A DNA stretch of 64,000 bases from Dehalococcoidia bacterium (GTDB taxonomy: Bacteria > Chloroflexota > Dehalococcoidia > WHTO01): assembly GCA_040902555.1 (NCBI GenBank), contig JBBDXC010000010.1:2309-66308 (forward strand). Reading direction: 5' to 3'. A model generated the notes under the pieces. That model was not told the origin of the DNA, searched no databases, and saw only the letters and a list, made by a program, of their open reading frames with translations. Below, piece after piece: positions 33,025 through 53,302 of this stretch. How positions within the stretch are numbered: position 1 is the stretch's first letter; each line of letters opens with the position of its first letter. The position numbers were made by a program, and so were the translations under genes.

Positions 33025-35346
33025 TTAATGGGGCAAAGGCGGGCTGACAGTAACACCAGCCGCAGCCAGACGCTCAAGATCCGCACCACGTCCGATCTCC
33101 TCGAGGATCTCGGCGGTGTGCTCGCCCAGCAGCGGCGCCACCCGCTGGATGACGCCGGGGGTTTTCGACAGGCGGAAGAGGAGGCCTGTTTGGGTGATTT
33201 GGCCGAGCTCAGCGTGGTGGCCGCTCGCGAGCAGGTCGTTGGCGGCAACCTGGGGGTCGTTGAAGAGGTCGAGGGGCGAGCGGAGGCGGGCACAGGGAAC
33301 CCCGACGCCGTCGAGAAGGCGTTCCGCATTCTTTGAGTCGAGGCCGGCGAGTACGGCGCTTACTGTGGTCGCATCGCTCCGCTCGGGACCGGAGAAACGG
33401 GCGGTAGCGAAGTCCTGTAACGCAAGGCCGAGCGCAGACCCTAAAGCCTCCCAATGGCTCGCTTCGCGGCAGGCTACGAAGAGCCAGTGATCGCCCGCGC
33501 AGCGATAGGCCCGGTAGCCCGGCCAGGGCCCTTTGGCTTCCGATGGTAAGGTGCGGGGTTCAGGAACTCCCTGGCCGAAGAGGAACTGGCCGGACTGGGC
33601 GGCCATCGTGGAGTTGGTCAGCGAGAGGCGGACGTGAGAGCCCTCACCGGTCTTCTCGCGCATCCAAATGGCCGCCAGCGCGCCGAAGGCATTAAGCATG
33701 CCGGCGGCGTGGTCGGACAGCGGCACAGCGAAGAAGACCGGGTCGCCGTCGCCGCCCTGGGCGGCCATTGCGCCCGACCGCGCCTGCAGCAGAGGATCGA
33801 AGGCCGGACGCTCGGCCAGCGGTCCCGTAAAGCCATTACCGACAACGCTGACGTAGACCAGGCGCGGATTGACCGCCTTGAGCGACTCATAGTCGACGCC
33901 GAGCCTCTGGGTGACGCCGGGGCGGTAATTCTCCACGAGCACGTCCGCGCCGCGGACGAGGTCAAGCAGTATCTCCTTGCCCTCAGGGCTGCGCAGGTCG
34001 AGGCCGATGCTGCGTTTACCACGGTTCCAGCCCAGGAAGCCGACAGCCATCTGGCGGAAAGGCTCGCCCTGCACCGGCTCAATCTTGATGACGTCGGCGC
34101 CCAGGTCGGCCAGCATCATTGGGCCAAGCGGGCCGGCGATGTAGAACGACAGATCAAGCACGCGCAGACCATCCAGTGGACTCTTGAGACCACGAGCAGC
34201 TTGCGCCCCTGGTCTGAGCTGCACCCCTGACCAGATTTCCTCGATCGCCCTCTCTCTTGGCACCGGCGCAGCCTTCTTGACGACCGGCTCGTCGGTACCG
34301 ACGCGGATCGGGACGCCCATCTGCACTGTTGGGCCGAGGACTGGGTCGTCGACCTCGACGCGCATGCCATTGGCGATCACCTGCGGGTCATCGATGAAGG
34401 CGCGCCGAGAGCCGACCTGGGCGGCCGGGACGTCCGATGCATCGAAGATGCTCAGCCACTCGCCACAGGGCTTCGAAGCGATGGCCTCGCCGATTACGGC
34501 CACCAGCGCCGCCCGGTAATCGGGAGCGACGACGCCCCAGGGGGCGTTTTGGAAGCGTTCATCGCCGACAAGCTCTGGTCGCTCGATGGCTATCGCCATC
34601 TTGTTGAAGAAGACATTGTTGCCGCAGGCCAGGAAAATCCACTCGCCGTCGGCGCACTGGTAGAGGCGATAGGCCGGGACGGCGCCAAGCGGGAAGCCAC
34701 GGGCCAGCGTGAGGCGCATGACAGCACCTTCGAGGGCGTTGACGAGGCTGCCGGTGGTCATCGCCAGGGCGCCGGCCAGCCAAGACACCTCAACGGTCTG
34801 CCCTCGACCGGTCGTTCGGCGTGCGAGTAGCGCGGCCATGGCCGCAATAGCACCCAGGAAGGCGGCGCCATAGCTCGCGAAGGGTAGCGTCAGGTAGACG
34901 GGCTCCAGGCTGGCGCTCGGCTGACCTTCGAGTAGGCCCGCGGCCGCGGCGGCCAGGGCATCATCCGCGAAGCGGCCGGCGTCGGGGCCGCGCGAACCCA
35001 AGGGCGGCAGCCAAAGGTGAACAAGGTGAGGATGTCTCGTGGCGATCTCGTCGGCATCCAGGCTGGCGGGCGCGGCACGTGGGAGGTAGCTGGTCACGAG
35101 CACGTCGGCGCATTGCAGCAGTCGTTCGAGCCGTTGCCGATCCTCACTACTTTCGAAGTCGACAAGGCAACCATCCTTGCTGCGGTTCCAGACGTGGAAG
35201 CCGGGGAGGCGCCGGCCGGGATCGCCCGACGGCGCGAGCTCGACCTTGACGACATCGGCGCCCTGCTCCGCGAGCAGCATCGTCGCGTAGGGGCCGGCGA
35301 TCTCCTCGCTGAGGTCGACGACGCGCAGGCCTTCCAGAGGCAGCAT
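33025..35346 (-). CDS. CoA-transferase family III (CaiB/BaiF) protein with two tandem complete transferase domains
   Basis: Two copies of the family N-terminal signature (LEGLRVVDLSEEIAGPYATMLLAEQGADVVKVE and LDGLRVLDLSFYIAGPLGPMMLADLGADVIKIE); start taken at ATG 35346 (ORF track 35385). Confidence 0.85.
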   Translation of the reverse strand: MLPLEGLRVVDLSEEIAGPYATMLLAEQGADVVKVELAPSGDPGRRLPGFHVWNRSKDGCLVDFESSEDRQRLERLLQCADVLVTSYLPRAAPASLDADEIATRHPHLVHLWLPPLGSRGPDAGRFADDALAAAAAGLLEGQPSASLEPVYLTLPFASYGAAFLGAIAAMAALLARRTTGRGQTVEVSWLAGALAMTTGSLVNALEGAVMRLTLARGFPLGAVPAYRLYQCADGEWIFLACGNNVFFNKMAIAIERPELVGDERFQNAPWGVVAPDYRAALVAVIGEAIASKPCGEWLSIFDASDVPAAQVGSRRAFIDDPQVIANGMRVEVDDPVLGPTVQMGVPIRVGTDEPVVKKAAPVPRERAIEEIWSGVQLRPGAQAARGLKSPLDGLRVLDLSFYIAGPLGPMMLADLGADVIKIEPVQGEPFRQMAVGFLGWNRGKRSIGLDLRSPEGKEILLDLVRGADVLVENYRPGVTQRLGVDYESLKAVNPRLVYVSVVGNGFTGPLAERPAFDPLLQARSGAMAAQGGDGDPVFFAVPLSDHAAGMLNAFGALAAIWMREKTGEGSHVRLSLTNSTMAAQSGQFLFGQGVPEPRTLPSEAKGPWPGYRAYRCAGDHWLFVACREASHWEALGSALGLALQDFATARFSGPERSDATTVSAVLAGLDSKNAERLLDGVGVPCARLRSPLDLFNDPQVAANDLLASGHHAELGQITQTGLLFRLSKTPGVIQRVAPLLGEHTAEILEEIGRGADLERLAAAGVTVSPPLPH

Positions 35347-35406
35347 CAGCGCAGCACCTCTCCCCCTGGCACCGTCTCCGTCCACCGAGAAGGGGACATG
35401 GGCCTG

Positions 35407-37363: not shown

Positions 37364-38056
37364 ATGTACCTCAAGCTCCTCCTCGCGCTTGGGCTGATAG
37401 CCCTCGGTCTATTCGAGGCCACCGCCGACAGCCAGGCCGGCCCTCCTCTGTGCGCCGGCAAGGAAGCGACGATCTTTGGTCAGTCGGGCACGATCAACGG
37501 CACGACAGGCAACGACGTAATCGTCGGCTCGGCCGCGAACGACGTGATCCTCGGAAGGGGTGGCAACGACACGATCTGCGCCAGCGCTGGCAGCGACGGC
37601 CTTAATGGGGGCGCCGGAAACGACAAACTCTACGGACAGGCGGGGGACGATGACCTCCTCGGCGGGGCCGGGACCGATGTCCTGTCCGGCGGTGGCGGTC
37701 CTGACCTCTGCAACGGCGGGGGCGGCACGGAGAAGACCATCGGCTGCGAAGTCCTGACGAACCTCACCATAGTTGCCACCGACTTCAACTTTGACATGAA
37801 CCAGTTCAACGTCCGTCCCAACACGACCGTCAGGGTTGCCTTGAACAACAAAACCAACGGCACGCCGCACAACGTAGCGTTCTACACGGACCCGGCGCAT
37901 ACCGACCTTGTGGCCAACACAGCCCTTGTGCCGGGTCCCGCCGTGCGAGAGATAAGCTTCCTGGCTCCAGAGGAGGGAGTGACCTACTTCTACAAGTGCC
38001 AGCAGCATGCAGAGATGAATGGCCAAATGACGACGAACAACGTCTTCCCGCCCTGA
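37364..38056 (+). CDS. Secreted protein with RTX-type glycine-rich repeats and a C-terminal type-1 copper (cupredoxin) domain, paralog 1
   Basis: Signal peptide (LLLALGLIALGLFEATA); repeats GNDVIVGSAANDVILGRGGNDTI...GGAGNDKLYGQAGDDDLLGGAGTDVLSGGGGPD; copper-ligand pattern H...C-x2-H-x5-M (PHNVAF ... YFYKCQQHAEMNGQM); GAAGGAAG SD before ATG. Confidence 0.75.
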   Translation: MYLKLLLALGLIALGLFEATADSQAGPPLCAGKEATIFGQSGTINGTTGNDVIVGSAANDVILGRGGNDTICASAGSDGLNGGAGNDKLYGQAGDDDLLGGAGTDVLSGGGGPDLCNGGGGTEKTIGCEVLTNLTIVATDFNFDMNQFNVRPNTTVRVALNNKTNGTPHNVAFYTDPAHTDLVANTALVPGPAVREISFLAPEEGVTYFYKCQQHAEMNGQMTTNNVFPP

Positions 38057-38084: not shown

Positions 38085-38756
38085 GTGAGAGCAACCATCC
38101 TCCTCCTTATGGCCGTGGCCGCGGCGGTCTTTAGCCTGTCAGGCAGCTCAGCCGGACCGTATTACGGGCAGACCTGCGACGGGGATCCGGTTACCAACAA
38201 CAACACGCCCACGGCGGGCGATGATGTGCTGGTCGGCACTTCTGGTGCGGACAACATCAACGGCGGCGGCGGCCGCGACAAGATCTGCGGTGGGCCGGGC
38301 GCCGACCTCCTTTCCGGGGGCGCCGGGGCAGACGAGCTCTTCGGCGAGGGCGGCAACGACCGCCTCTTCGGCGGCGGCGCCGTTGACACCCTGAGCGGCG
38401 GGCCCGGGACGAAGGACCGCTGTGATGGCGGGGCCGGGTTGGAAACATCGCTCAACTGCGAGATCTTCACCAACCTGACTGTGAAGACGGCCCCTGGCTT
38501 GGAGTTCGCACCCACTACCTTCACGGTCCCGCGGTCCAAGCAGATCAACGTGACACTGAACAACCTCGGCGGGACCCACAACATCGACTTCTACCAGGGC
38601 ACGGACTCATCTGGGGTCTTTGTGGCCGGCACGGATCTCGCCAACGGCCCGAACATCGACGACGTAACCTTCACGACGCCTTCCGAGCCGGGTTCGTACT
38701 ACTACGAGTGCGCGCTCCACGGCTCAGGTATGAGCGGCACCTGGGTGGTGCAGTAA
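38085..38756 (+). CDS. Secreted protein with RTX-type glycine-rich repeats and a C-terminal type-1 copper (cupredoxin) domain, paralog 2
   Basis: GTG at 38085 with AGGA 5 nt upstream; signal peptide; repeats GTSGADNINGGGGRDKICGGPGADLLSGGAGADELFGEGGNDRLFGGGAVDTLSGGPG; copper ligands THNIDF ... YYYECALHGSGMSG. Confidence 0.75.
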   Translation: MRATILLLMAVAAAVFSLSGSSAGPYYGQTCDGDPVTNNNTPTAGDDVLVGTSGADNINGGGGRDKICGGPGADLLSGGAGADELFGEGGNDRLFGGGAVDTLSGGPGTKDRCDGGAGLETSLNCEIFTNLTVKTAPGLEFAPTTFTVPRSKQINVTLNNLGGTHNIDFYQGTDSSGVFVAGTDLANGPNIDDVTFTTPSEPGSYYYECALHGSGMSGTWVVQ

Positions 38757-38961: not shown

Positions 38962-39879
38962 ATGAAACCGGGCCTGCCCGCGCCGCCCGACTACCTGACG
39001 CTGGATCAGGCGCTGGCCTCCGGCTTTCTGAAGATCTCTGAGGTCTCAGCCGGCGGTAGCGTGCCGAATTTAAGGGCCGAGAACCTCGGGGCGCGTTCCG
39101 TGCTCCTCCTAGACGGCGAAGAGCTGGTCGGCGCCAAGCAGAACCGCGTCCTCAACCTAACGCTGCTTCTCGCGGCGAACAGCACCACCACGATCCCGGT
39201 CTCCTGCGTGGAGGCAGGACGCTGGAGCTCGCGGAGCGCCGAGTTCGCCAGCGCGCAGCGCATGCACTTCGCGGCCGGCCGGGCTAAGCGCCAGGAACAC
39301 GTCACGGAGTCGCTCAATCTGCGCGGCGACCGGCGCTCGCGGCAGGGTGAGGTCTGGGAGGAGATCGCCGCCAAGTCGAGTGAGCTATCAGCGCCCTCGG
39401 CGACCGGGGCCATGGCGGACATCTACCAGAAGCACCAGCACACGGTGGACGAGTACACGTCGGCCTTTTCGGTCTCATCCGAGCAGGTGGGGGCGGTCTT
39501 CGCCGTCGGAGGCGACGTGCTGGGCTGCGAAGTCTTCGAGCATCCAGATGTTCTCCAACGCGTCTTCCCCAAGCTGCTCGGTAGCTACGCCCTCGAGGCC
39601 GTGGGCAAGGCGGCCGGTGGTGAACCCGCGGAGGGCGCGGCGCGAATCTTTCTCGAGAGCGTTGCCGCCGCTAACTACCGCGAGTTTCCGGCCCTCGGCC
39701 TGGGAAGAGATATGCGCATATCCGGCGACTCAATCACTGGCGGCGGACTGCTGCTGGACGAGAGGTTCGTCCACATGGCCGCCTTCCGCCAGGCTGGCTC
39801 GACGGCACGTCGCACCGCCGGGGCGACCGGCATGGCGCGCCCCAGCCAGCGCGCGCGGAGGCCAGCCTCCGATAGGTGA
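38962..39879 (+). CDS. Hypothetical protein (conserved-looking N-terminal domain, Arg-rich C-terminus)
   Basis: 305-aa ORF with GC-rich third positions; no motif I can assign to a named family. Confidence 0.6.
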   Translation: MKPGLPAPPDYLTLDQALASGFLKISEVSAGGSVPNLRAENLGARSVLLLDGEELVGAKQNRVLNLTLLLAANSTTTIPVSCVEAGRWSSRSAEFASAQRMHFAAGRAKRQEHVTESLNLRGDRRSRQGEVWEEIAAKSSELSAPSATGAMADIYQKHQHTVDEYTSAFSVSSEQVGAVFAVGGDVLGCEVFEHPDVLQRVFPKLLGSYALEAVGKAAGGEPAEGAARIFLESVAAANYREFPALGLGRDMRISGDSITGGGLLLDERFVHMAAFRQAGSTARRTAGATGMARPSQRARRPASDR

Positions 39880-40963: not shown

Positions 40964-41992
40964 TTAGCCGCCGCGTCCGGCGGCGGCGAAGCGCTCGCCG
41001 TACTGCTGCTCGTAGTAACGCTTGTAGTCTCCCGACTTGATCGGTTCCCACCACCAGTGGTTGTCTACATACCACTGGACGGTGGTGTCCAGGGCGCGCT
41101 CCAGGTCGAATTCCCGCTTCCAGCCCAGCGCCCGCAGCTTCGCGCCGTCCATGTAGTAGTGGCGGTCGTGGCCGGCACGGTCTTCCACCGGGACGATCAA
41201 GTCACGGCTGGCGCCGAGCCTATCGAGGATGAACTCGACGACGTAGCGGTTGTTGCAAGGGTTTCCGGCCCAGACGTTGTAGGCCTCGCCGGCCCTCCCT
41301 TCGTGGAGCACGAGATCGATGGCCGCGCAGTGGTCTGTGACGAAGAGCCGGTCACGCACCTGCTCGCCGTCGCCGTAGAGCGGCAACGGCTGCCCCTCGA
41401 TGGCGTTGGTGGTGAAGAGCGGGATCGCCTTCTCCGGATACTGGTAGGGACCGATGGTGTTGGCGCCGCGGGTGATGACCACGGGCAGCCCGTAGCTGCG
41501 GAAGAACGATGCAGCGAGCAGTTCTCCGCCCGTCTTGCTGGCTGCGTATGGACTGCTGGGATTAAATGGCGCGTCTTCCCTGGAGGGGTTCTCCGGGCCG
41601 ACGGGGCCGTAGACCTCGTCGGTGGAAACGTGGAGGAAGCGCTTGACGCCGTTTTCGCGTGCGGCTGTGAGCAGGGCGTACGTGCCAAATACATTGGTGG
41701 CGATGAACTCTGCCCCGCTGATCAGGCTGCGGTCTACGTGGCTTTCGGCGGCGAAATGGACGACGAGGTCTATGTCTCGCATCAGGTCGGCCATCTGCGG
41801 CGCGTCGGCGATATCGGCCTGGACGAAGCGGTAGCGCTCATCGCCCTCGACGTCTCGCAGGTTGGCCAAATTGCCGGCGTAAGTCAGCTTGTCGACGTTC
41901 GTAATGCGCCAATCCGGGTGCCGCTCTAAAGCCCAGCGCACGTAGTTGGAGCCGATGAAGCCGCAACCGCCGGTGACCAGGACGCTCGTCAC
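40964..41992 (-). CDS. rfbB: dTDP-glucose 4,6-dehydratase
   Basis: SDR-type motifs (VLVTGGCGFIGSNYV, YAASK) and conserved RfbB C-terminal region; GTG start overlaps the rfbA stop (GTGA). Confidence 0.9.
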   Translation of the reverse strand: MTSVLVTGGCGFIGSNYVRWALERHPDWRITNVDKLTYAGNLANLRDVEGDERYRFVQADIADAPQMADLMRDIDLVVHFAAESHVDRSLISGAEFIATNVFGTYALLTAARENGVKRFLHVSTDEVYGPVGPENPSREDAPFNPSSPYAASKTGGELLAASFFRSYGLPVVITRGANTIGPYQYPEKAIPLFTTNAIEGQPLPLYGDGEQVRDRLFVTDHCAAIDLVLHEGRAGEAYNVWAGNPCNNRYVVEFILDRLGASRDLIVPVEDRAGHDRHYYMDGAKLRALGWKREFDLERALDTTVQWYVDNHWWWEPIKSGDYKRYYEQQYGERFAAAGRGG

Positions 41993-43056
41993 GGCAGCCT
42001 CCCCTGGCTGTGGTCGCCAAGCTGAAGGGCGTAGCTCTCCGAGCCGCCGCGAAGGTGGACAAAGCGCCCGATGATGCTCTCGTTGAAGGGACGATCGCAC
42101 TCCTCGAGCGTCGAGTCCTGCATCACGATCGAACGGTTGACGACCACGTTTCGCAGGACGCAGCGGTCGTGGATAGACGTCGAGGGCCCCACGATTGAAC
42201 TCTCGACCAGCGTGTCGCGTCCGATGATGGCCGGCCCGTTGATCACGCTCTGAACCACGCGTGCCCCGGATTCGAGAACGACGGGACCATTTACAAATGA
42301 CTGGGCGTCAATTTCGCCATCCAGCCGCCGGCTCAAGGAAGCCAGCGCCACCTCGTTGGCCTCGAGGAGGTCATCGAACTTGCCGGTGTCGATCCAGCGG
42401 CCCTCGACAGTGGCGGCGCGTACCTTCTTCCCACTATCGAGCAGGCTCTGAATGGCGTCGGTGATCTCCAGCTCCCCGCGGGCAGATGGTTGGATGCTAC
42501 GGGCAGCGGTGAAGATAGAGCTGTCGAACATGTAGATGCCGATGACCGCCAGGTCACTGACAAACTCCTGTGGCTTTTCGACCAGCCGTTTCACCTGCTC
42601 GTGCTCGACCACGGCCACGCCCAGGCCCGTCGGATCAGCGACACGCTTGAGCAGAATCTGGGCGCTGCAGGATTCGTCAAACGTCTCCGTATACGGCGTA
42701 ATCCCACCGACCAGGAAGTTGTCTCCCAGCATCAGAACGAACGGATTCCCGTCAAGGAAGGCCTCTCCCGTAAGGACGCCGTCGGCAAGTCCCCGCGGCG
42801 CTTCCTGGGTTATGCACTCGATACTGGCGCCGAAGGCACTACCGTCGCCCACAGCCGCGCGGATCTGGTCGCCCGTGTCACCGACGATGATGCCAATCTC
42901 GGTTATGCCGGCCTCGACCAACTGCTCTATTCCGTAGAAGAGGACAGGCTTATTGGCCAGTGGGACCAGTTGCTTGGCACCTGTGTAAGTGAATGGCCGC
43001 AGGCGACTGCCCTTGCCACCGGAAAGGATCAGCCCCTTCAGCTTGCGTGCGGGCAT
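41989..43056 (-). CDS. rfbA: Glucose-1-phosphate thymidylyltransferase (long form with left-handed beta-helix C-terminus)
   Basis: N-terminal nucleotidyltransferase signature (KGLILSGGKGSRLRPFTYTGAKQLVPLANKP) followed by hexapeptide-repeat region. Confidence 0.9.
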   Translation of the reverse strand: MPARKLKGLILSGGKGSRLRPFTYTGAKQLVPLANKPVLFYGIEQLVEAGITEIGIIVGDTGDQIRAAVGDGSAFGASIECITQEAPRGLADGVLTGEAFLDGNPFVLMLGDNFLVGGITPYTETFDESCSAQILLKRVADPTGLGVAVVEHEQVKRLVEKPQEFVSDLAVIGIYMFDSSIFTAARSIQPSARGELEITDAIQSLLDSGKKVRAATVEGRWIDTGKFDDLLEANEVALASLSRRLDGEIDAQSFVNGPVVLESGARVVQSVINGPAIIGRDTLVESSIVGPSTSIHDRCVLRNVVVNRSIVMQDSTLEECDRPFNESIIGRFVHLRGGSESYALQLGDHSQGRLP

Positions 43057-43117: not shown

Positions 43118-44005
43118 TCAGGGAGACGCCTTGCCAAGCACCTCGTGAAGCTGGTGGACGCCGTCCTTGCCCTTGAGCTCGACTCCGAACTGCCCGCCGA
43201 AGGCAAAGCTGTCGTCGAGCAGGGTCTTTACATCATCGGTGACGAGGAACCGGGTGCCGGTCTCCTTCACGGCGTCCTGGACGCGAGAGGCCGTGTTCAC
43301 AACGTCCCCGATAACGTTGAGCGAGGACTTGTTGTAGTAGCCGACCTGACCGATGACGGCGTGGCCCCAGGCGATACCGATTCCAATGCGCAACGGGAAC
43401 TCGAACTGTTCCTGCGAGAAGGCGTCGAAGGCCTCGGCCGTGGCCAGCATCTGCAAGGCGCAGTTGACGGCGTGCTCCGCCGCGTGGCGCCTGTCGAGAT
43501 CCTCGAAGAGGCAGGCCATGCCGTCGCCGAGGAAAGCGATGACCTGCCCGTGGTTGAGCTCCACCACTGTGCCCATGCGGTCGAAGTAGCGATTCAGGAG
43601 GTGGAGGACATCGAAGGCAAGGCGCTGCTGGGCAAAGTTTGTGAAGCCACGGATGTCGCTAAAGAGGATCGCGACCTCGCGTTCCCGAGCCAGTCCCTCA
43701 GGGCGGAGCTCAGCGCCCTTCTGGGCCAGTAGCCGGCGGACGGTTACGTCTCCGTGAGGCACCAGCTGGCAGGCGAGCCGGACATCTTCGCCGAAGCGGC
43801 TGATCTTGAGGACCTGGGCCTCGGCCTCGGCGCGAGGCGGGCAGTTCTCCTGGCCGGCCAGGACCTCGACGCGGCAGGTGGTACAGCGGGCTTGACCACC
43901 GCAGGCGTGCATATGCTGGAGCCCATGCTGGATGGAGGCGTCGAGGACCGACATGCCCTGTGGCACATCGATCACCAGCCCGTCCCCGAAGTCGATGAGT
44001 GGCAT
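43118..44005 (-). CDS. 2Fe-2S ferredoxin domain fused to class III adenylate/guanylate cyclase catalytic domain
   Basis: N-terminal Cys cluster (HACGGQARCTTCRV ... LACQL) typical of plant-type ferredoxins; C-terminal cyclase motifs (VAILFSDIRGFTNF, NVIGDVVNTASR). Confidence 0.8.
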   Translation of the reverse strand: MPLIDFGDGLVIDVPQGMSVLDASIQHGLQHMHACGGQARCTTCRVEVLAGQENCPPRAEAEAQVLKISRFGEDVRLACQLVPHGDVTVRRLLAQKGAELRPEGLAREREVAILFSDIRGFTNFAQQRLAFDVLHLLNRYFDRMGTVVELNHGQVIAFLGDGMACLFEDLDRRHAAEHAVNCALQMLATAEAFDAFSQEQFEFPLRIGIGIAWGHAVIGQVGYYNKSSLNVIGDVVNTASRVQDAVKETGTRFLVTDDVKTLLDDSFAFGGQFGVELKGKDGVHQLHEVLGKASP

Positions 44006-44050: not shown

Positions 44051-44989
44051 TTACGAGAGTGAGGCCACGAGCTCGGCGACGGGCTCGTAGCGGTTGAAGG
44101 ACGGGATGAAGTAGACACCCGCCGCCAGCTCGCGGGCCACGGCGTAGAGCTCCTTGGCTATGGCGTCACCCTCGTGGCGCCCGTCCTCGCCGGCCTTCTT
44201 CATGCGCTCGCGGATGTCCTCGGGGATGTCGATACCGGGAAGCTCGCGGTGGAGGAACTCGGCGTGGCGGTAGTTCTGCAAGGGCATGATGCCGACGATG
44301 AAGGGCAGCTTGAGGCCCTTGACCCGCTCGAAGAACTGGTAGAGCGCCTCGGGATTGAAGATGGCCTGCGTCATGAAGAACGACGCCCCGGCCTCTCTTT
44401 TGCGCTTGAGCAGCTTCAATTCCCGTTCAAAGGATGGCGCTGTGGGGCTAACCGAAGCGCCAATCAGGAACTGGGTGGGCTTGCCGATGTCCTTTTCGGC
44501 CCAATCCTTGCCTTCGTTCAGCAGCTTGAGGATGCGCATGAGTCCGGACGAGTTCACGTCCCAGACGCCGATGGCGTCGGCGTAGCCTCCGACCTGAGGC
44601 GGGTCGCCCCGCAGGCAGAGGACGTTGCGGATACCGAGCACGTGCGCGCCCAGCAGGTCGCTGTGAATGGCCATCAGGTTGCGGTCCCGGGTGGTGAAGT
44701 GGACGATGGCCTCGACGCCAAGCTCCTGCTTGAGCAGGACGCCGATGGCGATCGGGCTGACGCGGGCGCGGGCCATGGGGCTGTCGGCCACGTTGACCAC
44801 GTCGACGCCGGCGTCGCGCAGGAGGCGCACGCCGTCGACCACGCGGCGGGATGAGATGCCACGGGGCGGGTCAACCTCGACGCTGACGATAAAGCGCCCG
44901 GCGGCGATCTTCTCGCTGAGGTTGGCTGGTTCGGCCACGGCGTCCTGCTCGCCGGCCGGGGGCGCTTTCAGAGTCGTGGCTTCGTTCAC
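44051..44989 (-). CDS. metF: Methylenetetrahydrofolate reductase
   Basis: 312-aa ORF with conserved MetF-family TIM-barrel regions (FIVSVEVDPPRG..., HFTTRDRN...). Confidence 0.85.
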   Translation of the reverse strand: MNEATTLKAPPAGEQDAVAEPANLSEKIAAGRFIVSVEVDPPRGISSRRVVDGVRLLRDAGVDVVNVADSPMARARVSPIAIGVLLKQELGVEAIVHFTTRDRNLMAIHSDLLGAHVLGIRNVLCLRGDPPQVGGYADAIGVWDVNSSGLMRILKLLNEGKDWAEKDIGKPTQFLIGASVSPTAPSFERELKLLKRKREAGASFFMTQAIFNPEALYQFFERVKGLKLPFIVGIMPLQNYRHAEFLHRELPGIDIPEDIRERMKKAGEDGRHEGDAIAKELYAVARELAAGVYFIPSFNRYEPVAELVASLS

Positions 44990-45593: not shown

Positions 45594-45950
45594 TTAGCAA
45601 CAGGCGCGGGCGCTGCCGCCACCTTCGGCGGTCTGGAAGCTGGTGCCGCAGGCACAGCTCTTGACAGCGTTGGGGTTGTAGACAGTGAAGCCGCTCTTCA
45701 TCAGGTCTTCGACGTAGTCGACCTGGGCACCCTCAAGGAGCGGGGCGCTGTCGGGGTCCATGACGACCTTGACGCCCTCGTACTCGAGGATGATGTCCTC
45801 GGTCTCGATCTCGGGGGCCAGCGCCATGCCGTACTGGTAGCCGGCGCAGCCGCCGCCGACGACGAACACCCTGAGGGCGCCCGCCGACATTTCCTTCTCC
45901 ACAAGGAGATTGCGAACCTTGTCGGCCGCCTTTTCAGTAATAGTCAGCAT
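45594..45950 (-). CDS. Iron-sulfur cluster insertion protein (IscA/ErpA A-type carrier)
   Basis: Conserved A-type carrier motifs (LRVFVVGGGCAGYQYGMA ... FTVYNPNAVKSCACGTSF); start taken at internal ATG (MLTITEKA); ORF track start 46034. Confidence 0.8.
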   Translation of the reverse strand: MLTITEKAADKVRNLLVEKEMSAGALRVFVVGGGCAGYQYGMALAPEIETEDIILEYEGVKVVMDPDSAPLLEGAQVDYVEDLMKSGFTVYNPNAVKSCACGTSFQTAEGGGSARACC

Positions 45951-46084
45951 CGTTACCTCGCGCCGGTGGCCACGACGGGCGGCCGGCTCCATTCCTATCA
46001 ATTGTATAGTGCCCGCGCAAACCCTGCCGGGCATCTTAAGCGGGGAGCGCCCACGCTGTAGCCTGTATAGCAGACTGCGCCGAG

Positions 46085-48727: not shown

Positions 48728-49753
48728 GTGCGCGTGGTGGTTACCGGGGCCAGCGGGTTCATCGGTTCGCAAATCTGCCGCCGGCTCGAGGCGGCGGGTC
48801 ACGAGGCCGTCGCCTTCGTGCGCAAGTCGAGCAACCGGCAGCGGTTGCAGGGCTCCGACCTCGAGGTGATGACCGGTGACATCCGCAACCAGGATTCCCT
48901 GCGAACCGCTTTCCACCACGCCGAGGCGGTGGTCCACTGCGCCGCGCTGGCCGACCCCTATGCCAATCCGTGGGAGTCGCGGGCAGTCAACTTCATAGCT
49001 GCGTTCAACGTCTGTCGCGCGGCCACGGACAGCGGCGTGAGCCAGCTCGTCCAGATGAGCACGGCGGCCGTCTATGCGCGGGATCACCCTCGAGGCGTGC
49101 CCCTGCGCGAGGAGGCCCGGTTGGTCAAAGAGCCGCCCGTCTACGACACCTACAGCATCAACAAGGCAGCAGCCGAGGGCTACGTCCAGGACTTTGGTCG
49201 GGCCGGCAGGCTGGCGACAACAATCCTTCGCCCGGGCGTCGTCTACGGTCCGGGCGACCGTGTCAGCGCCGCGCTGGTCTCGCTGATGCATCGTGGGAAG
49301 TTGATTATTCCAGCCGGCCGGGATCGGCGACTTCCACTGATCCACGTCGACGACCTTGGCTCGGCGGTGTTGGCCGCCCTCTCGAACTCGCCGGCGGGCG
49401 CGCGGAGGTACAACCTCGATGGGCCGAGGCCGGTAACGTTTGCCGCGTTTGCCGACGCTCTAGCCCGCAACACGACCCGTTCGAGTGGCAGAGTCCTTAC
49501 AGAGAGAGTGGCGCACCGATTGGCGTGGGGCTTTGAGAAGTGGTGGCACATCCAAAAGCTCGAGGGACGGCCACCACTGAACCGCTACGCGGTCGACCTG
49601 ATCACGGCCGATATGATCCTCGACACAATCAGGGGCATAGAAGAGCTGAAGTGGGAACCGGCTGTGAGCCTCGACGAGGGCGCGCAGCTAACCAGCGAGT
49701 GGTTGGGCAGCGAGCCGGCCGACCCCGCGGCCGGTTTTCCGCCCCTGGCCTGA
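48728..49753 (+). CDS. NAD-dependent epimerase/dehydratase family protein
   Basis: Rossmann motif VVVTGASGFIGS and a YxxxK-like motif (YSINK). Confidence 0.85.
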   Translation: MRVVVTGASGFIGSQICRRLEAAGHEAVAFVRKSSNRQRLQGSDLEVMTGDIRNQDSLRTAFHHAEAVVHCAALADPYANPWESRAVNFIAAFNVCRAATDSGVSQLVQMSTAAVYARDHPRGVPLREEARLVKEPPVYDTYSINKAAAEGYVQDFGRAGRLATTILRPGVVYGPGDRVSAALVSLMHRGKLIIPAGRDRRLPLIHVDDLGSAVLAALSNSPAGARRYNLDGPRPVTFAAFADALARNTTRSSGRVLTERVAHRLAWGFEKWWHIQKLEGRPPLNRYAVDLITADMILDTIRGIEELKWEPAVSLDEGAQLTSEWLGSEPADPAAGFPPLA

Positions 49754-49790
49754 TCTTGATCGGCCGGGCGCTCTGGTATCTTCCCCTCTG

Positions 49791-50630
49791 ATGACGGTTC
49801 GCGTCCTTACCGACAGCACGGCTTACTTCGCCCCTGGCGAAGCGGCGGCGCGTGGCGTAACGATCGTCCCGCTTTACGTGATTTTTGGCGAAACCACCTA
49901 CAAGGACGGGGTGGAGCTTTCCATCGACGAGTTCTTCGCCAAACTGGTCTCCAGCAAGGATCTGCCAAAGACCTCCCAGCCCTCGGCCGGCGACTTCCAC
50001 GACGCCTACCGCAGTCTCGGCCAGCCGGGGGTCCAGGTAGCGGCGATCCACCTGTCCTCGCATCTGTCGGGGACGCACAACACCTCGCGCATGGCGGCCG
50101 AGCAGATGGCGGGGCATCCGCCGGTCGAGGTCGTCGACTCGCTGACCACCTCTGTGGGCCAGGCTTTCGTCGTTCGCGCCGCCGCTGAGGCTGCCGCCCG
50201 CGGCGCCGGCCTCAGCGACGTGACAAGCGTGGCCCGCGAAGTCGCCGCCAAGGTCCACACCTACCTGGCCATCGACACGCTGCAGTATCTCCAGCGCGGC
50301 GGAAGGCTCGGGCGGGCGCAGGCTTTCTTTGGCTCCGCCCTCGACGTCAAGCCGATCATCGGCCTCGACGACGAGGGCAAGATCGCCCAGTTCGCGAAGG
50401 TCCGCACGCGCCGCAAGGCGCTGGACACCCTGCTCGAGCTGGCCGGTTCCCGGGGAACCCCGCGGAGGCTGGCGGTCGTGGATGCCACCACGCCGGCGGA
50501 CGCTCAGAGCGTCAAGATCCGCCTCGAGCGCGCCTTCCCCAACACCCCGGTGGAGGTGGGCCGTGCCGGCCCGGTAATTGGCGTACACGCCGGGCCGGGG
50601 ATGATGGGGATCCAGGTCGAGGAGGTCTAG
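49791..50630 (+). CDS. DegV family fatty-acid-binding protein
   Basis: 279-aa ORF with conserved DegV N-terminus (VRVLTDSTAYFAP...TSQPS) and family-typical length. Confidence 0.9.
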   Translation: MTVRVLTDSTAYFAPGEAAARGVTIVPLYVIFGETTYKDGVELSIDEFFAKLVSSKDLPKTSQPSAGDFHDAYRSLGQPGVQVAAIHLSSHLSGTHNTSRMAAEQMAGHPPVEVVDSLTTSVGQAFVVRAAAEAAARGAGLSDVTSVAREVAAKVHTYLAIDTLQYLQRGGRLGRAQAFFGSALDVKPIIGLDDEGKIAQFAKVRTRRKALDTLLELAGSRGTPRRLAVVDATTPADAQSVKIRLERAFPNTPVEVGRAGPVIGVHAGPGMMGIQVEEV

Positions 50631-50639
50631 ACGGCAGGC

Positions 50640-53096
50640 TTGACTTCGCCCGCGGTGCGCAACGAGGCAGAGGAGCGCCTGCTCAGGGTCCTCAAGCAGG
50701 AAGAGAGGCGGGGCTTCGACGACCGAGCCGTGATGGGCGGCCTCGACCGGCTGCTCAAGAACTTCGTGGGCCGGCTTGGGCCGCAGTCGGCCTTGCTGCG
50801 AGCCATCCTCGATCTCCCACCGATGGGCTACGCCGCCCTCACCCCGCCCCAGCGCCGACATTGGGCCGAGCGAGTCCAGAATCCGCCCGCGGCCGCGAAG
50901 GAGGTTGCCGCCGGCCGCAAACAGCCTCGGCCGAGACCGGCCACAGGTGTGCCGGCGGCCATCCACGCCGTGGGCGGGTTGAGCACGCCAATCTCCAGGT
51001 TGAGCATTCGCGAGACCACGGCCCAGAAGATAGCCAAGATAAAGCGCGGGGTCGGTCCGCTGGCTTCGGTCTACGACCTGCTCACGCATTACCCTTTCCG
51101 CCACATCGACTATGGCCGCCTCGCGAAGGTCGCCACGCTGCAACCCGGCGATAGGGCCACTTTGGCCCGGGTCGCGTCCGTGGACGCGCCGTTTCGTGGC
51201 AACCGCGGCCGCCCAGTGAGGGCGGTGTTGACCGACGACTACGGCCGGATCGAGGCCGTCTGGTTTAACCAATCGTGGGTTGCCGCGCAGCTCAAGCGGG
51301 ACCAGTGGTTCGTCTTCGCCGGCAAGGTCGGCTACTTTAACGGCCGCCTGCAGTTCGAGAACCCCGAGTACGAGCCGGCCAACGAAGAAACCCGCGAGTA
51401 CATCGACCGCGGGCGCCTCGTGCCGGTCTATCCGTCCACAGCAGGGCTGCCGCAACGGACCCTGCGGCGCGCAGTAGGCCTCGCCCTCAAGGGGTACCTC
51501 CAACTCGTTCCCGAGCTCCTTCCGGCAGAGATCCGCCACGAGGCAGCACTGCTGGAGCAGCAGGAGGCTATCCAGTCTTATCACTATCCACAGTCGCTCG
51601 ATGAGTACACCGAGGCCGAGAAGCGGCTTGGTTTCGACGAGTTCTTCATCAAGCAGATGGTGGTCCTGGCGCGACGGCGCGCCTGGCAGTCGGGAGCGCC
51701 GGCGCCCAACCTGTCGCTGGCGCCCGAAATCCTCGAGCGCTTCACGACATCTCTGCCCTTCAGCCTGACCGGCGCCCAGGAGCGCGCGCTGGCGGCGATC
51801 CTGCGTGACCTGCGCGGGCCGGCGCCGATGAGCCGGTTGCTGCAGGGAGACGTCGGCAGCGGCAAGACCGTCGTGGCGACGGCGGCGATTGTCGCGGCGC
51901 TGGCCAACAGTCATCAGGCGGTGGTTATGGCGCCGACCGAGATCCTGGCCGAGCAGCACTACCAGACCATCTCCCGCCTGCTCGGCGCCCCAGAGACCGC
52001 TGGCGCGTTGACCACGGCCGGCAACGATTACCTCGACCGCCCGGTCACGATTGCCCATCTCACGGGCGGGCAGAAGGGTTCGACCAAGAAGGAGGTGCGT
52101 GCCGCGATCGCCGCCGGCGAAGTGGATGTTGCCATCGGCACCCATGCCCTGGTCGAGGAGAGCGTGGACTTCGCCCGCCTCGGGCTCGCGGTTGTCGACG
52201 AGCAGCACCGCTTTGGGGTGGTCCAACGCGACCGCTTGAAGAAGAAGGGCGAAAGCCCCCATCTGCTGGTGATGACGGCCACACCGATACCGCGGACGCT
52301 CTCGCTGACCGTCTATGGCGACCTGGACAACTCGATCATCGACGAGCTGCCGCCGGGCCGGCAGCGCATTGAGACGCGCTACGTCGCCCCGTACGACCGG
52401 CCCTGGGCCTACACGTTTCTGCGCGAGCAGGTGCAGGCGGGGCGGCAGGCCTTCGTCATCTGCCCGCTGGTGGAGGAGAGCGAGACGATAGAGGCGAAGG
52501 CGGCTGTGCAGGAATACCAGCGACTCTCCACGGAGATCTTTCCCGACCTGCGGCTCGCGCTGCTGCACGGGCGGATGAAACCGGCGGAGAAGGACCGCGT
52601 CATGACCGAATTTCGCGCCGCCGACGCCGACATTCTCGTATCGACATCCGTGATCGAGGTCGGCATCGACATCCCCAACGCCACCGTGATGCTGATCGAA
52701 GGCGCCGACCGCTTCGGCCTCGCCCAGCTCCACCAGTTCCGCGGGCGCGTCGGCCGTGGCAGCGAGCAGAGCTTCTGCCTGCTGCTCTCGGACGACCCCT
52801 CGGACGAAGCGAAGGAGCGGCTTGACGTGGTGGTCTCGACCAACGACGGCTTCAAGCTGGCCGAGGAGGACCTGCGCATCCGCGGGGCGGGCGAGTACTA
52901 CGGGGTGCGCCAGAGCGGCCTCGCCGACTTCCGTGTGGCTCAGCTGAGCGACGAGGGTCTGCTGGCTACCGCGCGCCAGATCGCCGACCGGGTGCTGACC
53001 GAGAACCCGCAGCTGGAAGGCGAGGAGTACGCCGAGCTCAAGCATCAGGTCACCGACTTCGCGGCCAGCCGCAACATCATACTGGCCTTCCACTAA
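50640..53096 (+). CDS. recG: ATP-dependent DNA helicase RecG
   Basis: 818-aa ORF; Walker A (GDVGSGKT), DEQH box (VVDEQHRFGV), helicase motif (LVMTATPIPRTL). The 1212-aa antisense ORF 49629..53267 is an artefact. Confidence 0.9.
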   Translation: MTSPAVRNEAEERLLRVLKQEERRGFDDRAVMGGLDRLLKNFVGRLGPQSALLRAILDLPPMGYAALTPPQRRHWAERVQNPPAAAKEVAAGRKQPRPRPATGVPAAIHAVGGLSTPISRLSIRETTAQKIAKIKRGVGPLASVYDLLTHYPFRHIDYGRLAKVATLQPGDRATLARVASVDAPFRGNRGRPVRAVLTDDYGRIEAVWFNQSWVAAQLKRDQWFVFAGKVGYFNGRLQFENPEYEPANEETREYIDRGRLVPVYPSTAGLPQRTLRRAVGLALKGYLQLVPELLPAEIRHEAALLEQQEAIQSYHYPQSLDEYTEAEKRLGFDEFFIKQMVVLARRRAWQSGAPAPNLSLAPEILERFTTSLPFSLTGAQERALAAILRDLRGPAPMSRLLQGDVGSGKTVVATAAIVAALANSHQAVVMAPTEILAEQHYQTISRLLGAPETAGALTTAGNDYLDRPVTIAHLTGGQKGSTKKEVRAAIAAGEVDVAIGTHALVEESVDFARLGLAVVDEQHRFGVVQRDRLKKKGESPHLLVMTATPIPRTLSLTVYGDLDNSIIDELPPGRQRIETRYVAPYDRPWAYTFLREQVQAGRQAFVICPLVEESETIEAKAAVQEYQRLSTEIFPDLRLALLHGRMKPAEKDRVMTEFRAADADILVSTSVIEVGIDIPNATVMLIEGADRFGLAQLHQFRGRVGRGSEQSFCLLLSDDPSDEAKERLDVVVSTNDGFKLAEEDLRIRGAGEYYGVRQSGLADFRVAQLSDEGLLATARQIADRVLTENPQLEGEEYAELKHQVTDFAASRNIILAFH

Positions 53097-53129
53097 GCTT
53101 CGCCCCGCCGCCCCGCCGCCCCGCCCCGA

Positions 53130-53169
53130 CCTCACCCCTAACCCCTCTCCGCAAGCAGAGAGGGGGAAC
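53130..53169. repeat. REP-like bipartite palindromic repeat (copy D)
   Basis: CCTCACCCCTAACCCCTCTCCGCAAGCAGAGAGGGGGAAC, preceded by a (GCCCCGCC)x3 tract. Confidence 0.65.
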
Positions 53170-53260
53170 GGCGAAGGGAGCGCCAGGCCTCTGTATGTTG
53201 CGAATTGACCCGGAGGTGTGCCGCCGCCTGAGATCGAGTACGCCCCGCCACACCACCCCC

Positions 53261-53302
53261 ATCTCACCCCCTAACCCCTCTCCGCACCCGGAGAGGGGAG
53301 TT
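53261..53302. repeat. REP-like bipartite palindromic repeat (copy E)
   Basis: ATCTCACCCCCTAACCCCTCTCCGCACCCGGAGAGGGGAGTT. Confidence 0.65.

Follow-up and report, generated by a model that had tools for sequence, protein, structure and literature searches.

A minimal, soluble [2Fe-2S] ferredoxin–class III nucleotidyl cyclase fusion encoded in a Dehalococcoidia genome

The gene described here lies on the minus strand of a 64,000-nucleotide stretch of DNA from a Dehalococcoidia bacterium (hereafter the window), where it occupies positions 43118..44005, stop codon included, and encodes, from an ATG start, a protein of 295 amino acids. The codon-position GC of the open reading frame (0.71/0.39/0.84, in a window of 65% GC) matches the signature of the other real genes of the window and marks the plus-strand ORFs overlapping 43118..44005 as antisense artefacts. 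The start codon is backed by homologues that open with MPRID or MPLID, and an identical protein (P0001), from a Dehalococcoidia bacterium MAG, is held at NCBI under the name “adenylate/guanylate cyclase domain-containing protein”. Pfam finds two domains above their curated cut-offs: Fer2 (PF00111) spans residues 7–83, scoring 39.2 bits where 21 are required (E 6.7e-10), and Guanylate_cyc (PF00211) spans residues 108–283, scoring 83 bits where 21.9 are required (E 2.5e-23). This HMM search bears out an earlier note on this DNA, which had described a ferredoxin domain of about 90 residues fused to a class III cyclase domain of about 190 residues; we place the two at residues 3–91 and 107–292. 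That 43118..44005 encodes a real Fer2–cyclase fusion is far beyond chance. No hydrophobic or membrane segment was detected in the 295 residues, the N-terminus starting with the ferredoxin domain itself. The AlphaFold (AF2) model of the monomer has a mean pLDDT of 92.1, with an inter-domain geometry that is only moderately defined (pTM 0.66, for the monomer model). Residues 92–106 (43688..43732, minus strand) form a short, flexible linker in which pLDDT falls below 50 at residues 96–103 and for which AF2 predicts no helix, coiled coil or transducer element.

Downstream of the cyclase gene, and on the same strand, lie a long-form rmlA (41989-43056; TIGR01208, 394.7 bits) and rmlB (40964-42100; TIGR01181, 415.1 bits), with 61 bp between the cyclase gene and rmlA. 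Upstream, after a 45 bp gap and likewise on the minus strand, comes an MTHFR-like gene (44051-44989), and 1.6 kb upstream of the cyclase gene, again on the same strand, an IscA/ErpA-like Fe-S biogenesis gene (45594-46034). Farther genes of the window comprise murE, a biotin/lipoate protein ligase-family gene, recG, degV, fakA and other housekeeping genes; the 1212-amino-acid ORF read from the minus strand at 49629-53267 is spurious, being antisense to recG. No cNMP-binding, Rieske or second cyclase domain was found by Pfam among the roughly 35 ORFs of the window, which thus hold neither a Rieske partner as pathway input nor a cNMP-binding effector as output. Promoter and terminator scans, which are uninformative for this phylum, returned no site on either strand. 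The cyclase gene lies on a 148.9-kb contig; it is a chromosomal gene of the ordinary kind, set among housekeeping genes and already databased under a generic name.

The N-terminal domain (43733..43999, minus strand) is, by Pfam, NCBIfam, PDB and AF2 comparison, a [2Fe-2S] ferredoxin domain of the β-grasp fold, modeled as β-β-α-β-α-β-β at a pLDDT of about 90. Its top NCBIfam match is fdx_isc (TIGR02007), under the equivalog cut-off of that model, and its best PDB match is the E. coli ISC ferredoxin 1i7h (E 1.7e-9), followed by putidaredoxin and adrenodoxin homologues; plant-type ferredoxins (1frr, 1awd) match at just E 3e-4 to 8e-3. Three predicted iron ligands are read in the loop C35-X5-C41-X2-C44 (43874..43903), and the fourth is C79 (43769..43771), the counterpart of C87 in E. 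coli Fdx. The resulting spacing is CX5CX2CX34C, and C35/C41/C44/C79 align one-to-one with ligands C42/C48/C51/C87 of 1i7h. The earlier label “plant-type” therefore has to be replaced: the spacing is not CX4CX2C, the nearest proteins are ISC Fdx, putidaredoxin and adrenodoxin, and on these comparisons the domain is of the adrenodoxin/ISC type, a type that shares its Pfam family and its fold with the plant-type proteins. Conservation was assessed over the 120 best homologues and over a wider set of 355 sequences bearing the Fer2–cyclase homology domain (Fer2-CHD) cassette. C35, C41 and C44 are kept in 117 of the 120 close homologues, the remainder being gaps, C79 in 119, and all four in about 350 of the 355 cassette-bearing sequences. 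With these ligands aligned in register with those of solved ferredoxins, the domain is predicted to bind a cluster.

A further conserved cysteine, C55 (43841..43843, motif E-N-C-P-P), is found by alignment in 104 of the 120 close homologues and is probably not a ligand. We considered it as the fourth ligand in a short spacing like that of SdhB or aldehyde oxidoreductase and rejected this assignment: in the alignment C55 faces a Leu of E. coli Fdx that is not a ligand, and 16 of the 120 homologues have another residue in its place, whereas C79 is invariant and aligns with a ligand. The window domain shares its fold and its CX5CX2C...C ligand pattern with E. coli Fdx, putidaredoxin and adrenodoxin and differs from such ISC/P450-type ferredoxins in carrying C55 and in its setting, as these are free-standing electron carriers of some 105–130 amino acids and the window domain, truncated to about 90, is fused to an enzyme.

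The C-terminal half (43130..43687, minus strand) is a class III cyclase homology domain by Pfam, sequence matching and Foldseek. In sequence it matches Cya2 (2w01), CyaC (1wc0), OaPAC and CyaB (3r5g), the best matches to solved structures of the catalytic domain reaching E 1e-15 to 1e-17, and in Foldseek the modeled half superposes on the class IIIb enzymes CyaC, CyaB and Cya2 with target TM-scores of 0.83–0.88. The first metal-binding Asp, D117 (43655..43657, codon GAC, motif FSDIRGFT), aligns with the matching Asp of Cya2 and CyaC and, like the second, D161 (43523..43525, codon GAC, motif FLGDG), occurs in 120 of 120 homologues. The transition-state-stabilizing Asn and Arg are read from the codons of N237-T-A-S-R241 (43283..43297, motif VNTASR) and are kept in 118 and 119 of the 120, respectively. 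The D-D-N-R set (D117, D161, N237, R241) is whole in 344 of the 355 cassette sequences, which rules out a pseudo-enzyme. The domain is thus catalytically complete as judged by its residues, and activity is predicted; neither the missing catalytic residues nor the misfit of the cysteines to a ferredoxin fold that could have undone the earlier reading was found. Arthrospira (Spirulina) platensis CyaC, P. aeruginosa CyaB and Synechocystis Cya2 are the closest proteins in both sequence and fold and share the metal-binding Asp, the Asn and the Arg. These soluble class IIIb cyclases, unlike the window protein, have no ferredoxin domain, and they differ from it in the pair of residues that specifies the substrate, which is K-T (adenylyl) or E-G (Cya2, guanylyl) in the solved soluble class IIIb enzymes and A-N here.

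Adenylyl cyclases read adenine through Lys together with Asp or Thr, and guanylyl cyclases use Glu together with Cys or Ser (PMC7384201). By structure–sequence alignment the first of the two positions, Lys in adenylyl and Glu in guanylyl enzymes, is A157 (43535..43537), aligned with the Lys of “vdKfvGD” in platensis CyaC and the Glu of “ideFMGD” in Cya2; across the 120 homologues it is S, N, A, K or T. The second, Asp/Thr in adenylyl and Cys/Ser/Gly in guanylyl enzymes, is N230 (43316..43318), aligned with the Thr of platensis CyaC and the Gly of Cya2. With Ala157/Asn230 in place, both the adenylyl signature (Lys plus Asp, or Thr in class IIIb) and the guanylyl signature (Glu plus Cys/Ser, Gly in Cya2) are absent, so that the inspection of substrate-specifying residues proposed earlier did locate the pair and did not deliver a choice between ATP and GTP: the product is not predictable from these residues. 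A neighbor-joining tree of 350 cassette sequences places the window gene in a clade of 76 (68 minimal proteins and 8 with an N-terminal Rieske domain), every member of which has A/S/T/V at the first position and N/S/A at the second, with Lys at the first position in 0 of 76. At position 230 the clade mostly has Asn (82%), and the K-T forms almost always have Thr (98%). The clade further carries Tyr224, in the β4-β5 arm, and Gln243, which stands two residues past the catalytic Arg and replaces the Glu seen in 98% of the other sequences; C55 is Cys in 87% of the clade and mostly Leu in the K-T forms.

Read most simply, the product would be cAMP, since the enzyme is most closely related to class IIIb adenylyl cyclases; that assignment is uncertain because the clade has exchanged the adenine-reading Lys/Thr for Ala (Ser, Thr)/Asn, and the loss of the Lys at 157 could mean either a lower activity or an altered substrate. 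The alternative that a rebuilt base-recognition pocket makes the clade produce cGMP or a pyrimidine cNMP, or renders the enzyme promiscuous, will in our view probably prove wrong. It draws on the misfit of A157/N230 to either signature, on the lack of Lys throughout the 76 members and on the additional changes close to the active site (Q243, Y224), and class III-like cCMP/cUMP cyclases do exist, with PADLOC models of the Pycsar cyclase PycC matching the window protein at up to E 1e-20. Against it stand the adenylyl cyclases that are nearest in sequence and structure and the sister groups of the cassette, which are K-T or N-T. The mycobacterial cyclases Rv1900c and Rv0386 also have non-canonical specificity pairs and are nevertheless mainly adenylyl cyclases. 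The PycC matches, for their part, reflect the shared class III-like fold alone: the anti-phage PycC proteins have no ferredoxin domain, and the window gene has neither an adjacent effector with a cNMP-binding domain nor a defense-island context, on which grounds we rejected a role as a Pycsar or other defense cyclase.

Fer2–cyclase fusions are not new as an architecture and are widespread. A search over 1.84 billion representative sequences returned 440 matches at E 1e-30 or better, and nearly all of the best 150 of these span both domains; a scan of one genome per species counted at least 568 Fer2-cyclase loci, in Cyanobacteria, Bacteroidota, Planctomycetota, Actinomycetota and others, and, among the Alphaproteobacteria, in Sinorhizobium, Mesorhizobium, Rhizobium and Bradyrhizobium. 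The cassette occurs alone, as in the window, and within several larger architectures: Rieske-Fer2-CHD and Fer2-CHD-Rieske, Globin-Fer2-CHD and Fer2-CHD-Globin, Fer2-CHD-haem peroxidase, Fer2-CHD-NAD_binding_1 (FNR-like), and a form in which it follows an N-terminal extension of about 240–290 amino acids with 3–7 hydrophobic segments and 6–13 His. Among nine relatives tested with N-terminal extensions of 240–480 amino acids, eight have 3–7 hydrophobic segments; L019, with an extension of 214 amino acids, has none. The forms with a predicted membrane-embedded extension carry the K-T pair in 69 of 83 cases, or Q-T. All fusion partners of the cassette are redox or haem modules, which, among the comparative evidence, is what speaks most for a flow of redox information from the ferredoxin domain to the cyclase. 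The near-complete retention of both the cluster ligands and the D-D-N-R set across the 355 sequences indicates in turn that both halves are under selection as functional units.

In the literature, Beltz et al. described some 30 class IIIb cyclases in which a cytochrome-b-like six-helix anchor is followed by a ferredoxin domain (PMC4821796). The closest characterized relative of the window protein is the membrane-bound, quinone-responsive CyaC of S. meliloti. Experiments on this enzyme are reported to show that it binds haem B, in two groups, along with a [2Fe-2S] cluster, and that its activity follows the quinone redox state (PMC10463352, citing Wissig 2019; PMC9552081; for the architecture also PMC4821796). 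The redox sensitivity of CyaC is credited there to the haems, which leaves a regulatory role of the Fe-S cluster itself putative even in CyaC. CyaC (SMc01818) and ferredoxin-associated class IIIb cyclases such as Rhodopseudomonas palustris Q132R4 have the ferredoxin domain directly N-terminal to the cyclase, as does the window protein, and rhizobial members match the window protein over both domains at 35–44% identity, the cassettes being homologous. The CyaC-type proteins differ from it in their N-terminal six-helix dihaem-B membrane anchor of about 240–290 amino acids, whereas membrane segments are absent from the window protein, and in their canonical K-T or Q-T pair, as opposed to A-N. A characterized soluble Fer2-cyclase was not found in the accessible literature. 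The window protein is thus a minimal, soluble variant of a known architecture that has one characterized, membrane-bound representative.

Related loci were compared at ten distinct sites (eleven identifiers, with L002 and L003 being two contigs of one locus). In the three closest relatives for which context was available (64, 61 and 59% identity), a Rieske protein of 585–617 amino acids adjoins the cyclase gene on the same strand. This protein opens with a Rieske-type ferredoxin resembling the ferredoxin subunits of dioxygenases, and its remaining 470 or so residues have no match in Pfam, NCBIfam or PDB. In four relatives of an S-N subgroup the gene is flanked by a terminase-like gene on one side and an SPP1-type portal gene on the other. 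Both contexts are absent from the window; a tblastn search of the window with both 585-residue Rieske proteins (Rieske-585) gave no match at E 1e-3.

Taken at the level of sequence and comparison, the Fer2-cyclase family is widespread and barely studied, and the window protein is very probably a redox-controlled signaling enzyme. The particular form that we favor, and consider more likely than not, is a soluble, cytoplasmic, homodimeric class III cyclase under redox control through its N-terminal adrenodoxin/ISC-type [2Fe-2S] ferredoxin domain. This domain would be the sole regulatory module, with some 15 flexible residues linking it to the catalytic half. A change in the oxidation state of the cluster (2+/1+), to which loss of the cluster may be equivalent in effect, would alter the packing of the ferredoxin domain against the catalytic dimer, and the altered packing would toggle the two active sites at the dimer interface between productive and unproductive alignment, so that cyclic-nucleotide output would report the cellular redox state. 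As the linker is short, predicted to be disordered and free of helix, the model suggests that coupling would proceed by direct contact between the domains and not through a coiled-coil transducer. The cluster would probably receive its electrons from a redox protein of its own kind of partnership: in the closest relatives this may be the dedicated Rieske-type protein whose separate gene adjoins that of the cyclase, and elsewhere in the family the cassette itself is fused to a Rieske, globin, peroxidase, FNR-like or multi-span membrane module. Dimerization, the existence and direction of redox control and the electron donor are what we infer. The description “redox-regulated second-messenger synthase” given in the earlier note stands, for the soluble form, as a reasonable inference from S. 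meliloti CyaC (PMC10463352) and from the repeated redox and haem fusions.

Several other readings of the ferredoxin domain were weighed. In the first, which we regard as unlikely, the cyclase is switched not by one-electron redox chemistry but by cluster occupancy, with the holo or apo state reporting iron or sulfur supply, O2, NO or peroxide in the manner of the Fe-S transcription factors IscR or FNR. A minimal protein that has no fused primary sensor, in a window that holds no dedicated electron donor, would suit such a sensor, as would the nearby IscA/ErpA-like gene, and C55, close to the cluster, could serve ligand exchange or thiol chemistry. Adrenodoxin/ISC-type ferredoxin folds are, however, typically stable electron carriers, the repeated fusion or adjacency to a Rieske-type ferredoxin, an FNR-like reductase or a multi-span membrane anchor points to an electron relay, and the adjacency to IscA does not recur in related loci.

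A more far-reaching proposal, and a speculative one to which we give little credence at present, is that the 76-member, Chloroflexota-centered clade constitutes a distinct system, in which the Rieske protein, with its uncharacterized stretch of about 470 residues as a putative sensor domain, would feed electrons to the ferredoxin domain, and the rebuilt pocket (Ala/Ser/Thr plus Asn, Gln243, Tyr224) would yield either some nucleotide besides cAMP or a mixture of products. If true, a Rieske-to-ferredoxin relay with a non-cAMP product would mean that a phylum on which little work has been done has a new pathway from redox state to cyclic nucleotide.

It is improbable, in our judgment, that the ferredoxin domain is a non-regulatory structural or dimerization appendage, or a moonlighting electron carrier, attached to a constitutive cyclase. 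The short, disordered linker is compatible with this, lacking as it does a transducer helix of the kind usual where sensors are coupled to class III cyclases, but the order and spacing of Fer2 and CHD are kept over many phyla and outer architectures, as fits a coupled sensor–effector cassette, and the ligand cysteines are retained almost throughout the 355 sequences. A tie of the cyclase to dTDP-rhamnose or cell-envelope synthesis, which the shared strand, the short intergenic gaps and the lack of a terminator-like site in scans that are uninformative here might suggest, is very improbable and was rejected: the position upstream of rmlA-rmlB noted earlier is real as an adjacency and carries no functional weight, with rml genes found within 5–6 kb of the cyclase gene in 0 of the 10 distinct related loci.

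We thus return to the redox-controlled, soluble cyclase as the preferred reading. The architecture is known from membrane-anchored forms (PMC4821796); what is new here is its soluble, minimal form, in a clade with non-canonical specificity residues. Control of cyclic-nucleotide synthesis by Fe-S-based redox chemistry has one studied example, the membrane-bound CyaC, and the 295-residue soluble form, as the smallest version of the cassette, would be the simplest system in which to ask whether a [2Fe-2S] cluster gates a class III cyclase. The clade to which it belongs is also a natural experiment on substrate selection, both base-reading residues having been swapped with the catalytic core intact. 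For the family at large, the cassette would be a general plug-in unit for sensing redox state and gases, to judge by its recurrent pairing with Rieske, globin, peroxidase and FNR-like modules.

Three residues of the study protein, which joins a [2Fe-2S] ferredoxin (Fer2) domain to a class III cyclase domain, are specific to its clade of 76 Fer2-cyclase cassettes: C55 (43841-43843), an extra cysteine in the ferredoxin domain within the motif E-N-C-P-P; Q243 (43277-43279), a Gln two residues past the catalytic Arg at an otherwise 98%-conserved Glu position; and Y224 (43334-43336), a Tyr in the β4-β5 arm at a position that is mostly Gly.

The same window contains two tandem paralogous genes on the forward strand (37364-38056 and 38085-38756), each encoding RTX calcium-binding nonapeptide repeats and, at the C-terminus, a plastocyanin/azurin-like cupredoxin domain, an uncommon pairing within one protein. 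These are followed by an ARPP-1 gene (38962-39879, forward) with a full-length PF20208 domain (E = 3.6e-93), a family associated with ARG and rhodanese-phosphatase systems. On the reverse strand, two stretches of a 786-aa protein (33025-35385) match CoA-transferase family III (E = 1e-177), which suggests a tandem duplication or a fusion. A 1212-aa open reading frame (49629-53267, reverse) was rejected as a real gene: it lies antisense to recG (50640-53096, forward), has no match in a Pfam scan and does not show the GC3 signature of coding sequence. High-GC DNA contains spurious long ORFs of this type.

In distant relatives (P0123, P0131, P0124, L057 and L070) the cassette is joined with a haem peroxidase domain, with an FNR-like NAD-binding reductase or, at either end, with globins, fusions of which we found no description in the accessible literature. 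The Fer2-cyclase genes of four relatives with 48-54% identity (L005, 5001-5921; L088, 5001-5894; L089, 5001-5912; L090, 5001-5888), on four independent metagenome contigs, are surrounded by a conserved phage-like head/packaging block. Small ORFs and a late-activator-like protein lie 5′ of the cyclase gene, together with a terminase-large-like protein of ~470 aa (PHROG phrog_9, E = 5e-5) upstream and, on all contigs except L088, a glyoxalase gene also upstream; an SPP1-type portal gene lies downstream in L005 and L088 (E = 3e-23 in the latter). In this lineage the cyclase looks like cargo of a prophage or GTA-like element.

Beside the closest relatives of the study gene, a Rieske-type protein of 585-617 aa is conserved (L001, 4223-5980; L002, 6916-8769; L091, 2-1651), of which no homologue occurs in the window. 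The protein begins with a Rieske-type ferredoxin, and its other ~470 aa have no matches in Pfam, NCBIfam or PDB. This neighbour may serve as a redox partner or as a sensor.
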